From contig CALKWM010000038.1 in NCBI GenBank assembly GCA_938004065.1, positions 66,466 to 130,465 of the forward strand: a stretch of DNA of 64,000 bases, given 5' to 3'. This document shows, piece by piece, positions 4,001 through 61,632 of the stretch. The notes under the pieces were generated by a model. It searched no databases. It was not told where the DNA came from and saw only the letters and a list, made by a program, of their open reading frames with translations. Both the position numbers and the translations under genes were made by a program. Origin of the DNA: an uncultured bacterium. Lineage in GTDB: Bacteria; Patescibacteriota; JAHJAL01. Position 1 is the first letter of the stretch; every line of letters starts with the position of its first letter.

Positions 4001-7000
4001 TTACCGTGCCATTGCCAAGCGGATAACCGGTCCAGCTGGAGACATCTTCGTCGTCCTGAATGGTGGCGTTGGACAGCGGACTGATGGTCTGATCAATCTC
4101 AAACCAGTTGGTTTGATTCCAGGAACCATAACAGGTGACGGTGTTGCCGGTGGAAGAAGCGGTCACACCATTGCATTGAATATTGAAAGCGGCGATGTTG
4201 TTGGTGTTCATGTAGCTTTGCGAGGTGGAGGCGGCGGTCATGGAGAGATCACCTTCATAGTCCAAAGTGATTGGCCCCAAGCCGGGAGTCGGGTCGGGGT
4301 CGGTGGTAGTCAGAATCGCTTTATATTGAAAATATTGGTTTGGTGTAGAAGTAATAGTCGCGTTGGTGTTGTCTGTCAAATAGCCATCATTGGCCACAAT
4401 ACCAATATCATCAATCCAGAACGTTCGTCCTTGATTACCGTCCAAAAAGCGGAAAGATAATTCATCAATTGCATCGATGTGCGATGGCATGGCGCCAAAA
4501 ATATCAAAAGTCTCTTTCTGCCATTTGAAAACGTCGGCGTTGGCAGTGTAACCGCCACTCGGAAAAGTGCCACCGGCATCCCACAAAAAAACCGTTACTG
4601 CGCCGGTCGATTGATTGACGGTATTGACTGTGCCCTGGGCGATATATTCGGTGCCATCATAATTTTCGCGGACGATAATTTTGTCGCCGATAAATAGATT
4701 ACTGGCTTTTTGTGAAAGACCGCGAGTGGTAGCATCAACTGTAAATGATGTGTCGCCGGATCCGGAAATCAAATTGCCACTGTCCAATGATGCCCCAAAG
4801 TCAATTGTTGCCATATGAGTTCGTTTGCCGATTTCGTAGGCCTGGCGGATTTCTTCGGCAGTGCGGATTGTATTCGAAAGACGTACCTCATCAATCGTTC
4901 CGTTAAAGGCATAACTATATGGAGCTCCACTATAGGAACCGATGTCGAAATTATTGGTACTATTGACGATCGCTCCCTGAGCAACCGGCCCGCCCGATAA
5001 TTGACCATTAACGTAAATGTATATATTACTACCATTTAGAGTACCGGTCAGATGATACCAGGTGTCAAGCTGAGGCTGAAAAGAGGAGCTGGCGCACTGC
5101 CAGTCGCCATCATACACCATAAATCCAAAACGACTGGCGGTACATCCGGTAGATGTATAGTCATATCCGAACCAATACTCCCCTCCTTTACCAACAATTA
5201 AACTGCTAGTTTTATAACTATTAATTTTAACCCAGGCATCCAGTGTTACGCTACTGGGAGACAGACCATCGCTATCAAGTACAGTGACATAATCATCAAT
5301 ACCATCAAAATACCTGGCATTTCCGGTTTTTCCTTGAGTGGTTTTTGTTTCAAATCCCCGGCCTTCGTGATTATAGCCCGAGCTATCGACAGCAATCGGA
5401 TTATCTAGAACAGATATTTCTTGAAAAGTACCGGTATGGCGGTATTGGGCAATTTGCACCCGCAGACTTTCATTTACTTTGGCATTATCCGTTGCCAATA
5501 GTGTCGTCCAGTTGGTGTAAACACCGCCTTTGATTTCATATCTTGCTCCACCATTTGATAACAATGTAATCCTGACTTCATAAGTGGTGTTGGCGACATA
5601 GCCGGAACCATAGGGACCACCAGTTGAAGCACCGTCCTGATAGACATAAAAAGTGCCACCATTAAAATACAGTCCATGAGTCAAAGTGCTATAACTGCCG
5701 GATGAGGTCTGGTTTTGACCCCAGCCGATCATCATGTGATTGGGGGGAGCAACAGAAGTGCTTGTCCTAAATCGAGCGTAGAGCTGTTTACCGGCTTCAC
5801 GGGCAAATGTACCTCGAGATATAACACCCGAATCCCAGGCGGCGACGGTGCCGGCGGATAAAACTATACCATTATTTTGACTGATTTTATTTGCATTGGG
5901 ATCGACTTCCACCCAGTCGATTGTTCTGATGGTGGTACCGGATAAATCATAGGTTAATTTATCCTTGTTATCACCATCCAGATGCCATAAACCGACAGTA
6001 TTGGTGTCCGGCTGACCGTTGGCGTATGGTGATTCGCCGACAGTGGTATTGATGTGCGTGCCGGGTGAATCGGAAGCGATATAATAAGTCAGTTTATTGT
6101 TTGATGATAGATCTACGGGTGAAGCGAGCGAGCGAGTGAGGTAATGTGAGGCGCCGGCGCGGTAGGCCTCGGCGATTTCCTCCGGCGTGCGGGCAACATC
6201 GGAAATGCGAACTTCGTCTATATTGCCAGTATGATATAGATCCGTACCCAACGTATCGTAATGACCAATATAAATTGAGTCAGGATTATTGATATTGGTG
6301 AATTCATTGGCACTGACCGACCCGAACGAACAATTTTCGATGGCCTTTCTTTCTCCGTCGATAAATATCCTGTTGTCTCCATCACCCGTTGCGACCACCA
6401 CATGATGCCAGGCGCCGTCTAAATATTTTTCATGACCCTCACGCACGAACATGCCCAATTGATTGGTTCCACCGCGGCGTAGATAATACGAAATACTCTC
6501 GTCATCACAAAGGGATGTGACACTACCAACATATAAATGAGCAAGATCAGTATTAGCATCTTTATCCGTGATAGAGAAAATAGGACCGGCGGCGGTTGAT
6601 TTAAACCACATTTCGATCGTGCCCTGGTTACGGCCTTCCAACCCGGAAATATGGCTGGAGAGGTTAATATTGTCACTTATTCCATTGAAATATCTCGATT
6701 GACCGGAATATCCCGTGGAGATTGATGTACCGTTAGGCGTGCCGTTATATCCGTTTCCGGAAACGTCTTTGAGGTAATCAGAACTACCTGCCGTTTCCTC
6801 AAAATGCCAAAGACCGACGGTTTCCTCATCTGGTTGTATATAGCCAACGTTAATTTTTGTAGATTTGCCATTTTCTATACCAAACGATTCGTCCGAATTC
6901 AGGCCGTAGGGCATGGCAGAAAGTTGGGCAAAATATATTCTGGAATCTCCACTGGTAGCTCCCCGATACCACATCATATAACCTTGATCAGTTTTGATAA

Positions 7001-11659: not shown

Positions 11660-11688
11660 ATTGTAGCATATTTATCTTTTTTTTGCAA
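11660..11688 (-). promoter_or_regulatory. sigma70-like promoter of 1077..11621 (-35 TTGCAA, 17-bp spacer, extended -10 TGcTACAAT)
   Basis: Minus-strand sequence CCCATAAAAACCTTGCAA-AAAAAAGATAAATATGC-TACAAT-AATAAGATTT lies 40-70 bp upstream of the ATG. It is near-identical to the module upstream of 32390..50551. Confidence 0.6.
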
Positions 11689-11848
11689 GGTTTTTATGGG
11701 AAAAAACATTTTTTACATTTATGTCATGAAATGGCTTATTGGGTGGGGGTTTTGGGGTGAGTTCAAAAAACCCTGAAATAGTTTTTCAGAGTTTTTTGCT
11801 ATGTAAACAAAATGAACAACGATTGGAGAGAAAAATGTAAAGTACCAA

Positions 11849-11901
11849 GATCCTGAATCGCTCGAGTATTCGCTTCGCTCATCTCGGGTTCAGGATGACA
11901 A
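11849..11901 (+). repeat. palindromic intergenic element, copy A (GATCCTGAA-N36-TTCAGGATGACAA)
   Basis: 8-bp outer stem ATCCTGAA/TTCAGGAT, an inner CTCGAG..CTCGGG stem (one G-U pair) and a conserved 3' GATGACAA tail. Lies between the 11950..19683 stop and the 1077..11621 promoter. Confidence 0.6.
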
Positions 11902-50598: not shown

Positions 50599-50627
50599 AT
50601 TGTAGCATAATGGTCAAAAAAATGCAA
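50599..50627 (-). promoter_or_regulatory. sigma70-like promoter of 32390..50551 (-35 TTGCAT, 17-bp spacer, extended -10 TGcTACAAT)
   Basis: Minus-strand CCATAAAAACCTTGCAT-TTTTTTGACCATTATGC-TACAAT-AATACGATTT lies ~50-80 bp upstream of the ATG. It shares the CCATAAAAACCTTGCA and TATGCTACAATAATA.GATTT blocks with the 1077..11621 promoter. Confidence 0.6.
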
Positions 50628-50703
50628 GGTTTTTATGGTTGGAAAAATTACTATTATATATGCCTTGATTAGTGGCTATTCATAAGGTTTTTGGGGATTA
50701 CTG

Positions 50704-50804: not shown

Positions 50805-52076
50805 TTACAACCCATACTCACACTTATCGCCCAATTCTTCCTCAATTCGCATTAATTGATTGTATTTTTCCACTCGTTCACTGCGAGACAGCGAGCCGGT
50901 TTTGATGTATCCGGTACCGCAGGCCACTACCAAATCAGCGATAAAACTGTCACATGTTTCGCCGGAACGATGTGATACTATCGCCTTCCAGCCGGCTTTT
51001 TGCGCCATTTTGATGGCATCGACGGTTTCGGTTAATGATCCGATTTGGTTGAGTTTAATGAGAATAGCATTGGCACTTTTGGATTCAATCGCTTTTTGCA
51101 GGTATTCGACATTGGTAACGAGAAAATCATCGCCGACATTCATAACTTGCTCACCGATTGCCTCTTGCAGTTTGGGCCAATGATCCCAATCGTTTTGATC
51201 CAGTCCGTCTTCGATCGAGACAATGGGGAATTTATCAATCCAGTCTTGATATTCGGCTATTATTTCTTCCGTGGACAAGGCCTTTCCTTCTCTTTTCATG
51301 TCATAGATACCGCCGGAGTAAAATTCGCTAGCCGCCACGTCCAAGGCCAGACCGACATTTTTGCCCGGTTTGTAACCGGCTTTTTCGATGGCCTCCACTA
51401 AGATGTCCAAAGCCATTTTATTGGATGGCAGTGACGGCGCAAACCCGCCTTCATCGCCGACAGTAGTTGGGTATTTGTGATGGGAAATTATTTTCTTTAA
51501 AGAGTGAAATATTTCGGAGCCCATTTTTACTGCCTCACACATTGTTTTGGCACCATATGGAACAACCATATATTCTTGAATATCGGTTGAGTTTTCGGCA
51601 TGTTGACCGCCATTGATCAAATTCATCATCGGGACAGGCAAGATATAGTTATCAGTGGGATAATCAAATGTTTCCGCCAAATATTGATACAGGGGTTTGT
51701 TTTGGTCTTTGGCACTGGCTCGGGCTACGGCCATAGATACGGCGAGAATCGCATTGGCGCCGAGTTTTTCTTTGTTTTTGGTGCCGTCTAAAGCGATCAT
51801 GTTTTGGTCGATTAGTTTTTGATCGGAAGCATCCAGTCCTTTGAGTTTTTTTTGGATTTTGTCTTCGATGTTTTTGCAGGCTTGATGGACGCTTTTGCCG
51901 CTATACTCCTTGGCGTTATCACGTAGTTCCAGTGCTTCTCGCTCCCCGGTGGAAGCGCCGGATGGCACAGCGGCTCTTCCCAAAGTTCCGTTGTCCAATA
52001 TCACATCGGCTTCAACAGTGGGATTTCCGCGAGAGTCGAGGATCTGGCGGGATTTGATTTGTTTGATGGTGGTCAT
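50805..52076 (-). CDS. eno: enolase (phosphopyruvate hydratase)
   Basis: 423-aa ORF. N-terminus IKQIKSRQILDSRGNPTVEADV. Contains SHRSGETCDSFIADLVVACGTGYIKTGSLSRSERVEKYNQLMRIEEELG, the hallmark enolase C-terminal signature. Confidence 0.93.
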   Translation of the reverse strand: MTTIKQIKSRQILDSRGNPTVEADVILDNGTLGRAAVPSGASTGEREALELRDNAKEYSGKSVHQACKNIEDKIQKKLKGLDASDQKLIDQNMIALDGTKNKEKLGANAILAVSMAVARASAKDQNKPLYQYLAETFDYPTDNYILPVPMMNLINGGQHAENSTDIQEYMVVPYGAKTMCEAVKMGSEIFHSLKKIISHHKYPTTVGDEGGFAPSLPSNKMALDILVEAIEKAGYKPGKNVGLALDVAASEFYSGGIYDMKREGKALSTEEIIAEYQDWIDKFPIVSIEDGLDQNDWDHWPKLQEAIGEQVMNVGDDFLVTNVEYLQKAIESKSANAILIKLNQIGSLTETVDAIKMAQKAGWKAIVSHRSGETCDSFIADLVVACGTGYIKTGSLSRSERVEKYNQLMRIEEELGDKCEYGL

Positions 52077-52271
52077 GGTAGGTAAAGATTAAAAAAATAA
52101 TAAATTATAAATCCTAACGAACTGTAAATAAGATTGTGAAACTTTACAACTAATTACAAATTACTAACAACTAATTTATGAATAAAAGGGAAAAAGCGGG
52201 ATTGCAAACTATGATAATAATTACTTTTATATTATGAGAGTATTTTTGCCTGTTTTTAGTATTAATTTCAA

Positions 52272-53525
52272 TTATCTATGTGTATTATTTTGCATCAACC
52301 ATTTCCAGATAGGTTTTACATAAATTGTTTGGCGATTAATTTTTATCACATCATCATCATATCTGGTCAAAATCAGACCGGTTTTCAATTTGTAAGTATT
52401 CATAGCATCCAACAGTCCATTTATTTCTCTAGATTCATTTTTGCCATCAATTTTCTGTGTTACTTGAATTGCGGCAGTGATTGTATTTTTCTCTTTTATC
52501 ACAAAATCGCATTCATGTTTGTCTGAATGATAATATATTTCTTTGTTTCTTCTTTTTAATTCCAGAAATGTAATATTTTCCAATAATCGTCCGATGTTTT
52601 TGGAGAACGAAAAAGAAACCGCATTGATTAAACCGGTATCGATGCTGTAGATTTTTTTATTGTTGATAATTTGTTTTTTGACCGAATAATCATATTTACT
52701 TATTAGAAAATACAGATACGAACTTTCCAAGAATTCAAAATAGTTTTTAACAGTCGAAACACTTTGAAACTTCAAGATCTTGGCCAAGTTATTATAACTT
52801 ATCAAAGTCGAAGGATTGGATAAAATATACAAAGATAATTCGCGGAATGATTGGACATCCTTGATCTGATAACGGACAATAATATCTTTGATAAGTATAT
52901 CTTGATAAAGTTGTTTCAATTCATCACTATCACGACTTTGCACAACTTCCGGGAAACCTCCCAATAGTAAATACCGGTCAAATAACTTGTTTATTTGTGA
53001 TTTTTCTTTGGTGGTATAGATCTTTTTATTTTGAAAATCATGGTATTGCAAATACTCCAGCCAGCTAAATGGATATAATTCGATTTTTTGATGGCGACCG
53101 GTTAGCGATGTTGACAATTCAGAGGACAATAATTTCGCGCTACTGCCGGTTACAAAAACTTTATAACCATCACCATACAAACGACTGACAAATTTTTCCC
53201 ATCCGACAATGTTTTGGATTTCATCAAAGAAAAAAACAGAGTGATGATCATAAAGTGTAAAAAATATTTCCAAAAGGTTGTTAAAATCTTCAACTTGAAA
53301 ATCCAACAATCTTTCATCTTCAAAATTCAAATAGTAATATCCCGGGTAACGGTTTTTCAATTGCTTCAATAAGGTTGATTTACCGCATCGCCTGACACCA
53401 ACAATAGCGGTGATTTTGGAACTTTTGATAATTTTTTCAGAAACTTTTCTCTCGATAAACTGGTGTTTCTTTTCAAAACCGGATTTTTGGTCCACTACTA
53501 TTTCCTTGAGTTGGTTTTTATCCAT
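52272..53525 (-). CDS. AAA+ ATPase of the AAA_14/DUF4143 family
   Basis: 417 aa. Walker A IVGVRRCGKSTLL and Walker B/DE VFFFDEIQ. The C-terminal DUF4143-like region is typical of the COG1373 ATPase family. Confidence 0.8.
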   Translation of the reverse strand: MDKNQLKEIVVDQKSGFEKKHQFIERKVSEKIIKSSKITAIVGVRRCGKSTLLKQLKNRYPGYYYLNFEDERLLDFQVEDFNNLLEIFFTLYDHHSVFFFDEIQNIVGWEKFVSRLYGDGYKVFVTGSSAKLLSSELSTSLTGRHQKIELYPFSWLEYLQYHDFQNKKIYTTKEKSQINKLFDRYLLLGGFPEVVQSRDSDELKQLYQDILIKDIIVRYQIKDVQSFRELSLYILSNPSTLISYNNLAKILKFQSVSTVKNYFEFLESSYLYFLISKYDYSVKKQIINNKKIYSIDTGLINAVSFSFSKNIGRLLENITFLELKRRNKEIYYHSDKHECDFVIKEKNTITAAIQVTQKIDGKNESREINGLLDAMNTYKLKTGLILTRYDDDVIKINRQTIYVKPIWKWLMQNNTHR

Positions 53526-53779
53526 TTAGAATGTATATTAATAATATTATTTATACATTACTATTGTATATTATTTGATACTACTTGGCAAGAGTAGTCT
53601 TAGACTACAAGTTTTTTATACCAGACATGATCACCATAGTAACGAGATTGATTCAAATCATTCCCTGTGTAATTTTGGTTTCGGGTCGCTTTGCCCGTCA
53701 TCGATTGGCCAGTGTTCATAGGTTTCGAGCTGGTGAGGTGGTTGGTTTTCCAATGATGGGGGCATGGAATTTGAAAAAT

Positions 53780-54829
53780 TTAAAAATAATTATTGACCGC
53801 GAATTCAAATTGTTTGATGAACAGCTCCTTGAAATATCTTGCGCTATTTTGTTCATAAAACAAAATCATCGCTTTCTTGTATTCGACTTCATCAATTGTC
53901 CTAAGCGACATCGGACATAAGTCATTGGCCAGCATCATGGCATTACCTATCAACCTAGATGTTCTCTTGTTGCCATCTTCAAATGGTTGAGTATAGGCAA
54001 TAAATAAAATGGATAAGAATGCTTGCGAAAATGGATCTGATATTCGATTAATTTTTTTAATCATTCTAATGAGTGTTTCTTTGATCTGATACATGTTACT
54101 TAGCGGTTGATAATTGGTGCCGACGATTCTCACCAATTTTTGGCGCAAACCGGATTTGACATTTAGTTCTTTGGTCAGTAACTTGTGAATGTGTTCGATT
54201 AAGTTAAGTTTTAATTTTTTGAATTTTATCCGATTGGCTATAATGTATTCCAAAGCGTTTTTGTGATTGAGTATCATAATCGCCTCTTCCCTGGTGTGTC
54301 CGGTGGCTTCTTTTTTTTCTTTGATGAGAATTTCGGTATCGATTAATGTATATGTATTGCCCTCAATCCGGGATGATTTCCAACTTAGTTCAATCAACCA
54401 ACGCTCCAGTTCTTTTTGGTAAGCGGTCTTAGTCATGTTCTTTATCTTGCGTTGATAAACTTGGTTTAGTTTGGTTAAATGATATAATTCGTCTTTGCTA
54501 AAAACATTATCTATCCAATCCAAAACAGCAAAGTTAAAATGAATGACCTGATCCGACCTTTCGTCCTGTTCCTGAGAAAAGTAATCTTCTACCGGATAAT
54601 ACTTGAGCAAGGGATTGATTAATTTTTCAACATAAACCAGACTGCGGCCGGAACCTTGTTTCTGGATTAAATTATTTTGCAGCAATACTTCAATATCGCG
54701 GACAATGGTAACACGGGAAATCTCGCCAAATCTGGCTGCAATTTTAGGTTTTATCTCGCGATTGGATATATGACCGGATTGACGGATGAGATTCAAAATA
54801 TATATTTGTCTTTTAGTCAATTTGGTCAT
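53780..54829 (-). CDS. Fic/DOC family protein with N-terminal winged-HTH; Fic motif degenerate (QPFEDGNKRTSR)
   Basis: 349 aa. The N-terminal RQIYILNLIRQSGHISNREI...RVTIVRDIEVLL region is HTH-like. The C-terminal core has ...LSILFIAYTQPFEDGNKRTSRLIGNAMMLAN in place of the canonical H.F.[DE]GNGR..R. Confidence 0.8.
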   Translation of the reverse strand: MTKLTKRQIYILNLIRQSGHISNREIKPKIAARFGEISRVTIVRDIEVLLQNNLIQKQGSGRSLVYVEKLINPLLKYYPVEDYFSQEQDERSDQVIHFNFAVLDWIDNVFSKDELYHLTKLNQVYQRKIKNMTKTAYQKELERWLIELSWKSSRIEGNTYTLIDTEILIKEKKEATGHTREEAIMILNHKNALEYIIANRIKFKKLKLNLIEHIHKLLTKELNVKSGLRQKLVRIVGTNYQPLSNMYQIKETLIRMIKKINRISDPFSQAFLSILFIAYTQPFEDGNKRTSRLIGNAMMLANDLCPMSLRTIDEVEYKKAMILFYEQNSARYFKELFIKQFEFAVNNYF

Positions 54830-54965
54830 TTTTTTATTGTTTCATGATATTATTCTAATTGTATCATTTTGTAACAATTAGTAAATACCCCTGAAGTAAA
54901 AAGATTAGGAGCAATCCATCTTAATTTCTGTCAATTTTACTACAGATAGGAGAAAAGTTAAAGGG

Positions 54966-55086
54966 AAAGGGAAAAAGAATAAAGAAAGCTTAAAGACCCC
55001 CGCCCAAGGCGGGTCTCCTCCAAAGGCGGACAAGCGCCTCGGGCGGAAAAGATTAAGATTTTGATACTCTCACCGCGGAACGGGAA
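54966..55086. repeat. 115-bp direct repeat, copy 1 (identical to 57732..57846); GC-rich hairpin plus T-rich tail in minus-strand orientation
   Basis: 54972..55086 is base-for-base identical to 57732..57846, with 5 more flanking bases at 1 mismatch. Contains GACCCCCGCCcaaGGCGGGTC and AGGCGGacaaGCGCCtcgGGCGG hairpins. Overlaps the last 11 codons and stop of 55053..55775. Confidence 0.85.
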
Positions 55087-55775
55087 CCAAAGTCGCCAAT
55101 CTGAAGGACGGGATCGTTCCTGCTCAAGTCGGCTCGCCGACCGCTCTGGTACCAGTAGGCATAGCCGACATTGCCGGACGCGGGAAACCAGGTGGCGAGC
55201 AAGTAACAACCTTTGCCGTGACCTTGGTAATCATCGATCACTTGATTGGTTTTGGTGAGGTGAGTGACAAAGCGAACAAGCCAGTCTTCGTGGGTGAGGC
55301 CGGATTCGTGTTGGTAAGGAGAATCGGGTAATTTGTCTTTGAAAGTTTGGAGATATTTATTTGGTTTTTGATTGGCAGTGAGTTGGGGACGATCACCGAT
55401 GGTTTGGCCTTGGCCTTTGGCCGGAATATTGATGTTGTCTTCGAAGAGCTTGAGTTCCCAACCCAGGCAGGGGTCGTTGGTTTGGATTTGTTGTTTGATA
55501 ATATCAGCTTTGGTTTGGCCGCCATGTTTTTGAGTCTCGGTTTCATCCTCTGTTTTGATGAATGCCTGGGGATAGTAAAAGATGGCATTGGGGTCGTAGT
55601 AGCCTGATTTATCATCTGCTCCCCAGACCCAGAGGGGTTGGGAAGTGTCAAGTGTGAGGGGGACGAGTGCTTCCGCGGGATCGGCGGGATCTTTTTTGGC
55701 GGTAAAGAGTTTTTTAGCTTCATGATGTTTCAAAATTTGTGTTTTGGCAATTTCAGCCAGATTGGGAATAGACAT
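55053..55775 (-). CDS. hypothetical protein; C-terminal 240-aa segment of a probably disrupted gene
   Basis: ORF as called in the track. Protein-like translation continues in-frame upstream of the ATG at 55775 without an obvious start codon. The last ~11 codons and the stop are supplied by the 115-bp repeat. Confidence 0.55.
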   Translation of the reverse strand: MSIPNLAEIAKTQILKHHEAKKLFTAKKDPADPAEALVPLTLDTSQPLWVWGADDKSGYYDPNAIFYYPQAFIKTEDETETQKHGGQTKADIIKQQIQTNDPCLGWELKLFEDNINIPAKGQGQTIGDRPQLTANQKPNKYLQTFKDKLPDSPYQHESGLTHEDWLVRFVTHLTKTNQVIDDYQGHGKGCYLLATWFPASGNVGYAYWYQSGRRADLSRNDPVLQIGDFGSRSAVRVSKS

Positions 55776-56270
55776 GGCGAAGGGAGTTAGTTGGAGGCGG
55801 GTGAAGCCCTGAGAAGTTTTGTAGTTGATCTTTTCTTTGTTTTCTTTGAGTCGTTGTTTGACAGCTTCAAAGGTGGGAAAGGGATATTCCCGAGGTTGAT
55901 CGGGATGATCAGGATCAAGGCCATTGATACCGAGTTGGCCGGTGCTTAATTTCTTTAGTATCCCGATTTTAGTGAAGATCTCTTTTTGTGATTCGTATTG
56001 TTCCTTGACCGAGGCGAGGGAGAGATGTTCAAAGGGCCAGAGATGATTCTCTAATTATACAGTTTCTCGCTCCAGTTTGGTTTTGACTTTCCAGGCGGAT
56101 TGCAAGAGAGGACGAACCGAGGGGTCGCTTAGGTCGGGTGAGAGGGTTTTAGCTTTATCGAGCAGATCGCACATGAGTTTTTGCGACTCTTTGATACGAT
56201 CCAGGTCGCGGGTGAGTGTTTCGCATGATGGTTTGGTGGTTGATGGGGGTTGTTTTAAATTTGAGGGCAT
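55053..56270 (-). pseudogene. possible disrupted gene: 71-aa ORF (56055..56270), an in-frame TAA, then ~93 start-less codons and the 240-aa ORF
   Basis: Track coordinates place ATG 56270 and ATG 55775 in the same frame (495 nt apart), with the stop at 56055..56057 between them. My manual translation of 55776..56054 gives continuous protein-like sequence (...LGINGLDPDHPDQPREYPFPTFEAVKQRLKENKEKINYKTSQGFTRLQLTPFA|MSIPNL). A +/-1 uncertainty remains in my hand count of this stretch, so frameshift versus nonsense cannot be decided here. Confidence 0.35.
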
Positions 56271-56344
56271 AGGTAGTTATTATTAGCTTTTGAGTAATAC
56301 CAGAGGATGAATATAACTATATTAAGAAATCACAAAAGAGCAAC

Positions 56345-57478
56345 TTATTGAACATCCAAAAACTTTAAATAGTTTTTCGTATTGATTATTTGAATTTTTG
56401 CTTCCGGATACGTAACCTGGAATTCTCGGGAAAATTTCTTTTTATCTGGTGAATATTTGAATTCGTATGCATACAGATTGCCGTTTCTTTCCTCTATCCA
56501 GTCAACTTCTTGTTGGTCCCATGTACGCCAGAAATAGTTATTGCTAATTATTTGGGAATATTTTTGACATTTAATACGTTCGGTTACTAGAAAATTTTCC
56601 CATAGTTGACCTATATCGTTTCTAATTTCCAGAGGGTTGAAATTGGCAATTATTGCATTTCGAATTCCATTATCATAAAAATAATATTTGCTCTTTTTAG
56701 TAATCTCTTTGCGAAGGTTTTTTGAATACCCTCTCAGATTGTAAATAATAAATGACTTTTCCAAAAGATCCAGATATCGTTTGACTGTTTTATAATCCAG
56801 TCCTACTTGCCCACCCAATTCGGTCAGCGAAACTTCGTTACCAACTTGATATGCAATCAGACGAAGTAAATCAAGAAGTAATTTGGGTGACCTGACTTTG
56901 TCAAGTTCCAAGATATCTTTGAACAAGTAGGAGTTAGTGATTTCCTCCAGAGTACTGACTTTCTCACTATTGTCAGGCGCTGTGATGACAGCGGGATAAC
57001 TACCAAAGACAAGTATTTCATTGAGTTTTTGTTTTAGTTCAAAATGATTGTACAATCCAGCTAGCTCCATCTGGGAAACCGGATACATGATGAGGGTTTT
57101 TTTACGCCCGGTTAGTGGCTCTCCTACTTGTCCGGCCAATTCAAATGACGATGAGCCGGTGGCGATAATTTTGATATCGGGAATATTGTCCACCAATATC
57201 TTGAGACCAATGCCGATAGCGGGTATTCTTTGGGCTTCATCAATAACTATTAGATCGTATCCGGAGGCATATTCTTTGATTTTGGTAAAATCTTCGGAGT
57301 TAAGCACTTGTCTGGTAGAGATATTGTCACCAGAATCAAATTTGTGTTTTAAGTCTGTTTGAGAGAGAAAATCTTGCAACAGGGTTGTCTTGCCAACCTG
57401 CCTGGAGCCATATATGACTAAAACCTTGTTGGGAACAAGATAAGTGCTTAAGTCTTGGTATTTTCTTGGTATTTTCAT
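56345..57478 (-). CDS. AAA+ ATPase of the AAA_14/DUF4143 family (second, divergent copy)
   Basis: 377 aa. Walker A IYGSRQVGKTTLL and Walker B LIVIDEAQ. The C-terminal DUF4143-like region is present. Divergent paralog of 52272..53525. Confidence 0.8.
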   Translation of the reverse strand: MKIPRKYQDLSTYLVPNKVLVIYGSRQVGKTTLLQDFLSQTDLKHKFDSGDNISTRQVLNSEDFTKIKEYASGYDLIVIDEAQRIPAIGIGLKILVDNIPDIKIIATGSSSFELAGQVGEPLTGRKKTLIMYPVSQMELAGLYNHFELKQKLNEILVFGSYPAVITAPDNSEKVSTLEEITNSYLFKDILELDKVRSPKLLLDLLRLIAYQVGNEVSLTELGGQVGLDYKTVKRYLDLLEKSFIIYNLRGYSKNLRKEITKKSKYYFYDNGIRNAIIANFNPLEIRNDIGQLWENFLVTERIKCQKYSQIISNNYFWRTWDQQEVDWIEERNGNLYAYEFKYSPDKKKFSREFQVTYPEAKIQIINTKNYLKFLDVQ

Positions 57479-57725
57479 GTTTTTATTATACTATATCATC
57501 CTCATTATTGTCAAATTTCGAGGAGTTTCACTACTACTAATATTGGTATTCTAATCATATGAACTATTCTATATTTACATTATGAGGCAGATTACTATTC
57601 ACCACATTCAGATATTTTTAATGTTTTCTGTAAATAATCTAAAAGAACTAAACCACGAAAAGTTCAAGGGAACCCGCTTACGTTCTAAAAAAACAAACTA
57701 CGGCAGGACAAGAAAGAAGAAAACC

Positions 57726-57846
57726 AAAGGAAAAAAGAATAAAGAAAGCTTAAAGACCCCCGCCCAAGGCGGGTCTCCTCCAAAGGCGGACAAGCGCCTC
57801 GGGCGGAAAAGATTAAGATTTTGATACTCTCACCGCGGAACGGGAA
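57726..57846. repeat. 115-bp direct repeat, copy 2 (downstream of the pgi/pmi stop)
   Basis: Identical to copy 1. Located 66-186 nt past the stop of 57912..59045 on the transcribed strand. Confidence 0.85.
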
Positions 57847-57911
57847 TTTGAACTATTGGTTATAGTTTGGAGATTTGAGTTTTGATTTTTTAGTTATTGA
57901 ACACCTGGATA

Positions 57912-59045
57912 TCAAGAATTGATAATTGTCTCCACCCATTCCCCCGTCTTGAGCATTCCCTTTAGCTCTTCGATAGCGGTAAATGGCACCGGGTCATGGC
58001 CCAGCAAGAAAGCCAGATAGACGCTGACGTAATCACCTAAAATCACGCCTTTGCAGATACCGCCGGTATAATTGTCATTATCGATTTCGTAGATACTGAT
58101 ATCAAATCCTTGTTTTGAAAATGTTTCCCGGATAATATCGGATCGTTTAAAATTGCGGGGATGATATAAATTGCTTTTGAGGATTAGGATATTGATCGTT
58201 TTTTTTAATTCCGTCGAGCATTCCAAACCTTGTTGAGCGTTATGGTTAAGCTCGGGGATTTCTTCGAAATATGAAGGAATTTTGGTATTTTCGTTGAATT
58301 CCCCTTTCCACCGCCTGGCAACCACAGATAAATGTTCGGCGCCAAATACGACGGGGATGGAGTTGACTAAACCGGAGGCGATGTGCTTGGCAAGATTATT
58401 GTCATGATTTAATTCTTCATGGTATAGATTAACGGCCTGATTCATAACATCGATAGCTTCGAGCAGATTAATATCAGATGAATTTAAAACTCCTTGTTTG
58501 ATCAACAATTCCAAAACTACAAAGAACGAGTGTCCCCAGGCGGTACGAGGGGGCATATTGGGTGGCAAAATAAAATATTGATCGTTATTTTCTTTGGCCA
58601 ATTCAATCAACTTGCCACCGGAGCCGAGACAAAATATTTGCGCTCCTTTGGTGCGAGCTTGAACGTAACCGGAAAGGGTTTCTTCGGTATTGCCGGAATA
58701 GCTAATGACGATGGCGAGAGTTTTTTCGTCCACCCAGTTGGGTAGATTGTAATCGCGGACGATTTGAATTGGTAGTTGTGAGTATTTTTCAATTAAGAAT
58801 TTGGCCATGTCAGCACCGATGGCCGATCCGCCCATGGCACAAACGATTATTTTGTCGAAATTCATTGATTGTGATTCTTGGGCTGTGAATTGTTCCCAAA
58901 CTTTTTGGATTTGATTGGGGGTATCTTTGAGAATTGGCAAATACCCCGATGGATCAGCTTTTTTAATCTCTTCGATGTTGTTTAGGTCGAGCATAGGTCT
59001 AAAAAATTTAATAATAAATAAATTGATTGTTTTTATTGCTTGCAC
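57912..59045 (-). CDS. bifunctional phosphoglucose/phosphomannose isomerase (SIS-domain, archaeal-type PGI/PMI)
   Basis: 377 aa. SIS-domain signatures IIVCAMGGSAIGAD and LAIVISYSGNTEET. The C-terminal half is typical of the bifunctional PGI/PMI family. The true start may be the internal Met (MLDLNNIEE). Confidence 0.75.
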   Translation of the reverse strand: MQAIKTINLFIIKFFRPMLDLNNIEEIKKADPSGYLPILKDTPNQIQKVWEQFTAQESQSMNFDKIIVCAMGGSAIGADMAKFLIEKYSQLPIQIVRDYNLPNWVDEKTLAIVISYSGNTEETLSGYVQARTKGAQIFCLGSGGKLIELAKENNDQYFILPPNMPPRTAWGHSFFVVLELLIKQGVLNSSDINLLEAIDVMNQAVNLYHEELNHDNNLAKHIASGLVNSIPVVFGAEHLSVVARRWKGEFNENTKIPSYFEEIPELNHNAQQGLECSTELKKTINILILKSNLYHPRNFKRSDIIRETFSKQGFDISIYEIDNDNYTGGICKGVILGDYVSVYLAFLLGHDPVPFTAIEELKGMLKTGEWVETIINS

Positions 59046-61494: not shown

Positions 61495-61632
61495 TTGTCA
61501 TCCTGAACCCGAGATGAGTTCGCCGAATAGGCGGATGAATACTCGAGCGATTCAGGATCTATGGACAAAAAATTTTTTATAGATCCTGAATAGCTTGAAG
61601 CGCCTAAAGGGCTTTCAGGTTCAGGATGACAA
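61495..61632. repeat. head-to-head pair of the palindromic element (copies D1 reverse and D2 forward) flanking an A6T6 palindrome; likely bidirectional terminator between convergent genes
   Basis: D1 61495..61559 is TTGTCATCCTGAA...TTCAGGATC, the reverse complement of the copy-A organisation. The centre is caaAAAAATTTTTTat. D2 61582..61632 is AGATCCTGAA...TTCAGGTTCAGGATGACAA. The pair sits 13 bp after the stop of 60229..61482 and ends 4 bp before the stop of 61636..62082. Confidence 0.6.

Follow-up and report, generated by a model that had tools for sequence, protein, structure and literature searches.

A probable diversity-generating retroelement relic and solitary defence-candidate genes between pgi and eno of an uncultured Patescibacteriota bacterium

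One clade of diversity-generating retroelements (DGRs), 'clade 2', is confined to the Patescibacteria or candidate phyla radiation (CPR), and no recognisable domain is found in its targets (Roux et al. 2021, PMC8144416). Among defence candidates, the PDC-S01 family is the fourth most common and still unvalidated (PMC12988326); the DUF4143 domain has been placed in the PD-(D/E)XK superfamily (PMC3424549), and one PDC-S01 member, tested in E. coli B, did not protect it against T4, T5 or T7 (bioRxiv 10.1101/2024.09.26.614923). Non-canonical Fic proteins can be toxic, as exemplified by Fic2 of C. fetus (PMC5651007), or can act without catalysis, as does BepC. Genes related to all of these lie in a 5.8-kb stretch of non-housekeeping content that separates pgi/pmi from eno in an uncultured, ultra-small bacterium of the Patescibacteriota (lineage JAHJAL01). 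The DNA analysed, referred to as the window, comprises 64,000 nt of contig CALKWM010000038.1 (GenBank assembly GCA_938004065.1, positions 66,466 to 130,465 of the forward strand). The stretch holds two ATPase genes, a fic gene, a disrupted gene that we call X, and two perfect direct repeats. We consider it moderately probable that this variable region is a decayed two-target DGR cassette joined by independently acquired ATPase and Fic genes, and that the repeats are duplicated ends of DGR targets.

X is a 406-codon frame interrupted by one in-frame TAA only (56055..56057, codon 72). Intact homologues of 392 aa span 96-98% of X and carry a lysine at the position of its stop. Recoding of the stop codon was considered and rejected, as TAA also terminates eno, both ATPase genes, fic, X itself and a giant gene; as adjacent genes regularly end in TAA, the in-frame TAA of X is a true nonsense codon. 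About 40 homologues of X were found, all of them annotated as hypothetical proteins and all from Patescibacteria wherever the source names the organism, with overall identities to X of 35-64%. In the family alignment the C-terminal approximately 45 residues are hypervariable and give way to a conserved RSAVRV end. The stretch of X equivalent to the variable region (VR) of a DGR target is located at about 55067..55181. X matched nothing in Pfam, NCBIfam, PHROG and PADLOC, and a profile search of the family against PDB sequences was likewise empty. As regards a C-type-lectin or Ig-like fold that would carry the VR, an AlphaFold (AF2) model of the homologue P0002 was confident (predicted local distance difference test, pLDDT, 91.3), and Foldseek comparison of this model with PDB and BFVD gave no match at E <= 0.001. 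X resembles the clade 2 DGR targets (PMC8144416) in having no recognisable domain and, like DGR targets, has retained both a hypervariable C-terminus and the conserved motif at the VR end.

The surroundings of four homologues, in the loci L113, L115, L117 and L120 (37-42% identity of the encoded protein to X), give the family its identity. In each of these loci a copy of the last 113-122 nt of the X homologue lies 270-310 nt downstream of the gene, and ORFs (open reading frames) for bAvd and/or an RVT_1 reverse transcriptase (RT) come after that copy. Mismatches between the copy and the gene end fall at adenines of the copy in 13/14 and 14/14 cases for L113, in 20/22 for L115, in 19/19 for L117 and in 17/18 for L120, a pattern that marks copy and gene end as the template repeat (TR) and the VR of a DGR. 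Because homologues carry such adenine-specific TR/VR pairs beside Avd and RT genes, we assign X to a DGR target family. In the loci examined, X homologues adjoin DGR reverse transcriptases and not ATPases.

Two near-identical targets in the same orientation flank the core in two of the four intact cassettes. L113 is ordered X1-TR-RT-716 aa-172 aa-X2, where X1 and X2 are 97% identical and have 64 nt of 3' flank in common; in L115 the second X copy stands after a 711-aa gene, a homologue of the 716-aa gene of L113. The order of an intact cassette is target 1 - TR - (Avd) - RT - large protein - target 2, both targets being followed by the same 3' flank. The VR/TR homology of L113 and L115 stops at the motif CCGnnCCGSGGTGAG.

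This arrangement bears on the direct repeats of the window, which are exactly 115 bp long, identical at 115/115 positions and set at a period of 2,760 bp. Beyond the 115 bp about 12 A/G-rich bases match partially and identity then falls to random level, so that the outer boundaries are sharp. A 52-nt core of the repeat has only two occurrences in the window, and 100 shuffles never produced it; an exact search for the core in IMG/VR viral contigs gave no match. As a tRNA scan of the window and an Rfam search (at gathering thresholds for the full 64 kb and at E <= 1 for 52000-58000) were both empty, the repeat is no known RNA gene and a tRNA integration site is absent. Copy 1 is the genuine 3' end of X. 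Both copies start 3 nt before a motif resembling an IMH (initiation of mutagenic homing) element, CCGTTCCGCGGTGAGAG, which in X aligns with the end of the TR/VR homology in L113 and L115. After the motif come 31 nt for SRSAVRVSKS (coding in copy 1, formerly coding in copy 2) and the stop codon, then a hairpin rich in GC (folding energy as RNA -48 kcal/mol, z = -3.0) and finally a T-rich tract. We read the hairpin as a terminator; as it is not conserved in X loci, we do not claim a DGR cruciform of the kind described for BPP-1. Copy 2 begins 65 bp past the pgi stop, shows no similarity to X upstream of it, and probably now serves as the pgi terminator.

Since the repeat consists of the conserved coding end of X, its stop codon and its terminator, the two copies are most likely duplicated ends of DGR targets and not integration (att) sites. 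A preliminary description of the stretch had presented the island as bounded or decorated by perfect 115-bp repeats. The repeats exist as described, but they bracket only ATPase2 and X; Fic and ATPase1 lie outside, and 2,760 of about 5,800 bp are enclosed, so the island is not delimited by them. Nor is there support for the view, taken in that description, of the 2,760 bp as a duplication or insertion unit, the repeat being the 3' end of X and neither recombinase nor tRNA being present. RecA-type recombination between the repeats could delete the 2,760 bp.

Compared with a working DGR, the window lacks RT, Avd and TR, and the target carries a premature stop. No RVT_1-like ORF was detected in the 64 kb, and tblastn with the RTs of L113 and L115 found nothing there; sensitive blastn with the 3' region of X returned the perfect tail copy only and no diverged TR. 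Avd and the 711/716-aa accessory protein were sought in the window and not found, and the intergenic pieces of the island matched DGR loci at chance level only. Because the window contains neither template repeat nor reverse transcriptase, no hypermutation is to be expected from this locus, and the X locus is, as far as its sequence tells, a DGR relic or at best a remote target, not a working DGR. It further differs from DGR cassettes in that one target end is an orphan stub and that an unrelated gene, ATPase2, sits where TR-Avd-RT stands in the intact cassettes. The simplest history proposed here would have involved deletion of the body of target 1 up to the IMH, which would have left its orphan 3' end behind pgi, and loss of the TR/Avd/RT core, at whose place the self-contained ATPase2 gene with its own promoter would now stand. 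X would be the former target 2, inactivated by the TAA at codon 72. Most likely, the three solitary defence-candidate genes (those of the two ATPases and Fic) were acquired independently.

Some further features of X-family loci were recorded. The RT is split into two consecutive ORFs in L113:2120-3135 (199+144 aa), L115:7832-8825 (185+137) and L120:2205-3114 (151+144), each ORF matching one half of RVT_1, while the RT of L117 is a single 324-aa ORF; such recurrence points to a conserved frameshift, to read-through or to an RT made of two pieces, and not to random decay. A short conserved motif, GCGGCGAAAAG, located approximately 70-80 nt 3' of the VR and after a T-rich tract (L115:7170-7200, L117:9140-9160, L120:1435-1455), may be the start of the TR-containing RNA. 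The homologue P0014 (L120:320-1399) has 72 member sequences in its 90%-identity cluster, yet was read on one contig only, and active DGR diversification of the C-terminus would produce a cluster of such size. Three X-family paralogues stand on one Patescibacteria contig (L119:2-703, 773-1756, 5018-5902) with no RT within 9.7 kb, and thus orphan or remote DGR targets of the X family occur elsewhere too. The closest homologue of X (L002/L003, 64% amino acid identity) lies on a contig without a TR, and its IMH-like motif is altered.

Presence of the 5.8-kb segment was compared in Patescibacteria relatives, whose loci were retrieved with eno and pgi as anchors (L032, L033, L035, L036, L037 and L038). 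Identity to the window genes is 68-78% for eno and 52-68% for pgi. In all six the genes run orf417-orf254-pgi-eno-giant protein, and only 40-240 bp lie between pgi and eno. As six relatives with the same flanking synteny have pgi beside eno, the segment is a lineage-specific insertion, and its earlier designation as an accessory segment is borne out. A homology search of the relatives' pgi-eno spacers against the island gave chance-level matches only. The comparison of GC content with the flanks, which had been proposed as a check, points the same way: the core genes have 41-46% GC, and ATPase1 (31.7%, the lowest in the region), Fic (35.6%) and ATPase2 (36.9%) are AT-rich against them. X has 47.9%.

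Both ATPases combine AAA_14 and DUF4143 domains and resemble PDC-S01 (COG1373-type) proteins in this architecture and as single-gene units in variable contexts. A PADLOC search, which the preliminary description had named as a test, returned PDC-S01 matches that run nearly end-to-end in both proteins (PDLC04789 at 3.7e-149 for ATPase2, PDLC04787 at 4.4e-112 for ATPase1) and a weak SoFic/PDC-S04 match for Fic. ATPase2 has the Walker A motif GSRQVGKTT, the Walker B motif VIDEAQ and the nuclease-like motif D..EFK. ATPase1 has intact Walker motifs, but differs from PDC-S01 in a non-canonical nuclease-like motif, D..QVT (window 52455-52469) instead of D..E.K, which may be inactive or a variant. The two proteins share 26% identity; ATPase2 is indeed a second, divergent DUF4143 ATPase, and at so low an identity they are not duplicates of each other. 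Since the literature puts DUF4143 in the PD-(D/E)XK superfamily, the ATPases are presumed to be NTP-driven nucleic-acid-targeting proteins. We infer a role in defence from their family only.

For ATPase2, homologues at E <= 1e-60 number at least 7,995. Those most similar to it, 64-71% identical, belong to Parcubacteria, Omnitrophota, Chloroflexota, Saganbacteria and a Bathyarchaeia archaeon, and this level of identity across several phyla and an archaeon argues for frequent horizontal transfer of the gene. In two contexts examined, homologues were solitary and without X, one of them beside AbiE. Upstream of the window gene, an inverted repeat (CTCCTC..GAGGAT) brackets the -35 box of a consensus promoter (Table 1). 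A comparable promoter with an inverted repeat precedes homologues in L121:4940-5000 and L123:4920-5000 (window 57485-57540), and the 61 nt 5' of ATPase2 are 74% identical to L121. The layout could provide a leaderless mRNA and an autoregulatory operator. Judged from these comparisons, ATPase2 is an independent, widely transferred gene unit with which the promoter region travels along.

The Fic protein belongs to a subfamily rich in Patescibacteria sequences, and its closest relatives are Patescibacteria 'Fic family proteins'. Its Fic motif, QPFEDGNKRTSR (aa 281-292, nt 53954..53989), follows the subfamily pattern QxFxDGNKRxxR, and in the alignment its active-site Gln stands where human FICD has the catalytic His of the motif HPFIDGNGRTSR. 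Among the 150 best representative homologues, 111 have a recognisable motif, and 109 of these 111 share Q.F.DGNKR. The active site had been described as degenerate: it is non-canonical, with Gln in place of His, but since 109 of 111 homologues share the Gln, the variant is a trait of the subfamily and not local decay. The inhibitory-helix motif SxxxEGN has been kept (nt 54356..54376), its SSRIEGN aligning with TVAIEGN of FICD. Judging by its sequence, the gene is under selection.

The canonical AMP-transferase motif HxFx(D/E)GNGRxxR with its catalytic His is absent from the protein, which is probably not a canonical AMP-transferase. The kinase motif of P1 Doc is HxFx(D/N)(A/G)NKRxxR. The Lys of GNKR is Doc-like and is present in our Fic protein, but Gln replaces the His of the Doc-type motif. 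The protein is like FICD (class II) in that the alignment takes in the active-site loop as well as the (S/T)xxxE(G/N) motif of the inhibitory helix. It is unlike FICD, Doc and SoFic in the Gln for the catalytic His and in its winged helix-turn-helix (HTH) N-terminus, for which the matches are weak. Of the earlier designation HTH-Fic, the Fic domain was confirmed by Pfam, and the N-terminal HTH gave sub-threshold winged-helix Pfam matches only (aa 2-70). Other matches were to phrog_11900 (2e-32), SoFic (1.8e-16, partial) and PDC-S04 (4e-15). Fic genes of the Gln-variant subfamily seem to accumulate in variable regions. On a Woesebacteria contig (L126:1-784 and 5001-6056), a ParE/Phd toxin-antitoxin pair stands in the 4 kb that separate two Fic genes.

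Several points weigh against the reading of the region as a decayed two-target cassette with added defence candidates. The two-target history is an analogy with two of four intact loci, and no intermediate state was found; L034, the nearest relative by pgi (78-81% identity), is on a contig that stops inside pgi and does not cover the junction. The search for DGR parts was confined to the 64-kb window of this genome, the GC-rich hairpin is not conserved 3' of other X homologues, and for the defence candidates the function of PDC-S01 is unproven, the tested member having given no protection. Moreover, the surroundings of copy 2 show no remnant of X1, TR or RT, which leaves room for a dispersed duplication of the 115-bp block. 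The block might have been copied locally, by template switching or gene conversion, and have come to lie behind pgi as a terminator, in which case a second target never existed. The position of copy 2 just past pgi, its strong hairpin and T-rich tract, the failure to find traces of an X1 body or a TR, and the perfect identity of the copies, which suggests a recent event, would all suit such copying. We nevertheless consider it unlikely, if worth keeping in mind, as the block takes in 31 nt of X coding sequence and the IMH-like start, both needless for a terminator, and as intact relatives naturally have two targets in the same orientation with identical 3' flanks.

Perfect, sharp-edged direct repeats that bracket exactly ATPase2 and X, the absence of the whole region from relatives and the evident horizontal movement of the ATPase family could also be explained by a mobile or integrative cassette of 2,760 bp that used the 115 bp as an att-like site, the repeats being attL and attR. 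There is, however, no integrase, transposase or tRNA in the window, and no recombinase domain was found in the ORFs of the segment with Pfam, PADLOC, NCBIfam or PHROG. The supposed att site is X's own conserved coding end with its terminator; neither of the two ATPase2 homologue contexts examined has X or such repeats, and X homologues were found with DGR parts, never with an ATPase2-type gene. Integration would also require a pre-existing X tail behind pgi, which itself calls for the DGR-relic explanation, and we regard a mobile unit as rather improbable. The segment is like genomic or defence islands in being absent from relatives with identical flank synteny, in its atypical composition and in its defence-candidate cargo, but unlike them in lacking an integrase, a tRNA target and element-bounding repeats; it looks like a patchwork of genes acquired singly, together with a decayed DGR. 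The preliminary description had further speculated on a toxin-antitoxin- or abortive-infection-like module. The idea of a single system, in which Fic would be the toxin and the ATPases its sensor or partner, could draw on the PADLOC profile matches of three of the four genes, on their common strand and on the AbiE neighbour of one ATPase2 homologue. Yet intergenic gaps of 196-254 bp separate the genes, ATPase2 has its own consensus promoter, a terminator stands between X and Fic, and no credible small antitoxin or partner ORF lies beside Fic or the ATPases. Neighbours are not kept either, one Fic homologue locus examined being without ATPase and two ATPase2 homologue contexts without Fic, and Fic carries its own inhibitory helix motif; we hold such a module to be very unlikely. 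Finally, the sequence comes from a metagenome-assembled genome, and a perfect repeat near the k-mer size would suit mis-joining by assemblers, in the form of a chimeric join or a mis-resolved repeat. The separate SPAdes assembly ENA ERZ724101 (NODE_115, L001) is 100% identical over the shared 18.9 kb, both repeats included, and this independent identity argues against an artefact. The exact 240-aa ORF that follows the stop of X is on record in several contigs, one of them an NCBI contig of 326.5 kb in which the identity also holds, and we give an assembly error hardly any credence.

With the decayed-cassette reading, the broken hypothetical gene and the odd repeats gain an identity as the relic of a DGR target, and the locus illustrates the decay of a hypermutation cassette in a reduced CPR genome. 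A DGR target family specific to CPR is documented, with a confidently predicted fold and no known structural match, and two abundant uncharacterised families are flagged: PDC-S01 ATPases with a conserved promoter/operator, and the Gln-variant HTH-Fic proteins. Current concepts are unchanged by these data, and the island is a typical small variable region composed of known kinds of elements. Going further, one might suppose that the 3' module of DGR targets (IMH, stop and flank) is a hotspot of recombination or breakage, that CPR cassettes are gutted and re-used as landing pads for single defence-candidate genes that move horizontally, and, as a separate matter, that the Gln-for-His HTH-Fic proteins form a catalytically distinct or purely regulatory class. 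We offer this as speculation with a small chance of being correct. If the hotspot exists, the orphan IMH stub and the PDC-S01 ATPase at the TR-Avd-RT position would be a snapshot of an exchange of a DGR for a defence gene.

Table 1. Positions of features in and beside the pgi-eno segment of the window.
Feature	Position	Strand	Evidence
eno, enolase; conserved right flank	50805..52076	-	Pfam Enolase_N/C
ATPase1, second PDC-S01-type AAA_14/DUF4143 ATPase	52272..53525	-	AAA_14 4e-36, DUF4143 8e-21
HTH-Fic, Patescibacteria-rich subfamily	53780..54829	-	Pfam Fic 4.4e-10, above cutoff
Repeat copy 1, genuine 3' end of X	54972..55086	-	IMH-like motif 55067..55083, stop 55053..55055, hairpin 55000..55046, T-rich tract
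Gene X, putative pseudogene from a DGR target (variable protein) family of Patescibacteria	55053..56270	-	homology, translation
ATPase2, AAA_14 + DUF4143 (PD-(D/E)XK-type), PDC-S01 type	56345..57478	-	DUF4143 2e-40, AAA_14 8e-26
Sigma-70-type promoter TTGACA-18-TATAAT	57485..57514	-	12/12 consensus positions; ends 7 nt before ATPase2 ATG
Repeat copy 2, presumed orphan DGR-target 3' end	57732..57846	-	motif 57827..57843, TAA, hairpin 57760..57806, T-rich tract
pgi/pmi, bifunctional phosphoglucose/phosphomannose isomerase; conserved left flank	57912..58994	-	NCBIfam NF006426 5.8e-89; Pfam bact-PGI_C + SIS

The genes, the in-frame stop and the repeats listed in the preliminary description were all found at the coordinates it gave. 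Every gene of the region lies on the minus strand, and in the direction of transcription the order is pgi/pmi, the 65-bp spacer, repeat copy 2, the promoter, ATPase2, X with repeat copy 1, Fic, ATPase1 and eno. The pgi/pmi ORF reaches back to a GTG at 59045 (57912..59045); as the gene call in the independent assembly is 360 aa long, the ATG at 58994 is the likely start.

Most of the window (1077-50551) is occupied by four giant minus-strand ORFs of 3514, 2577, 3739 and 6053 aa, which are rich in internal repeats and have Laminin_G_3/DUF2341 domains. In all relatives eno is followed by the 6053-aa gene, so that the eno-giant synteny is conserved. A 46-nt direct repeat, 72% identical between its copies and starting with TGCAAGGTTTTTATGG, is found at window 11684-11729 and 50623-50668, just 5' of the start codons (11621, 50551) of two of the giant genes, and may represent a promoter element or 5' leader common to both. 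The arms of a 41-nt inverted repeat (83% complementary) lie at window 11831-11871 and 61537-61577, 49.7 kb apart.

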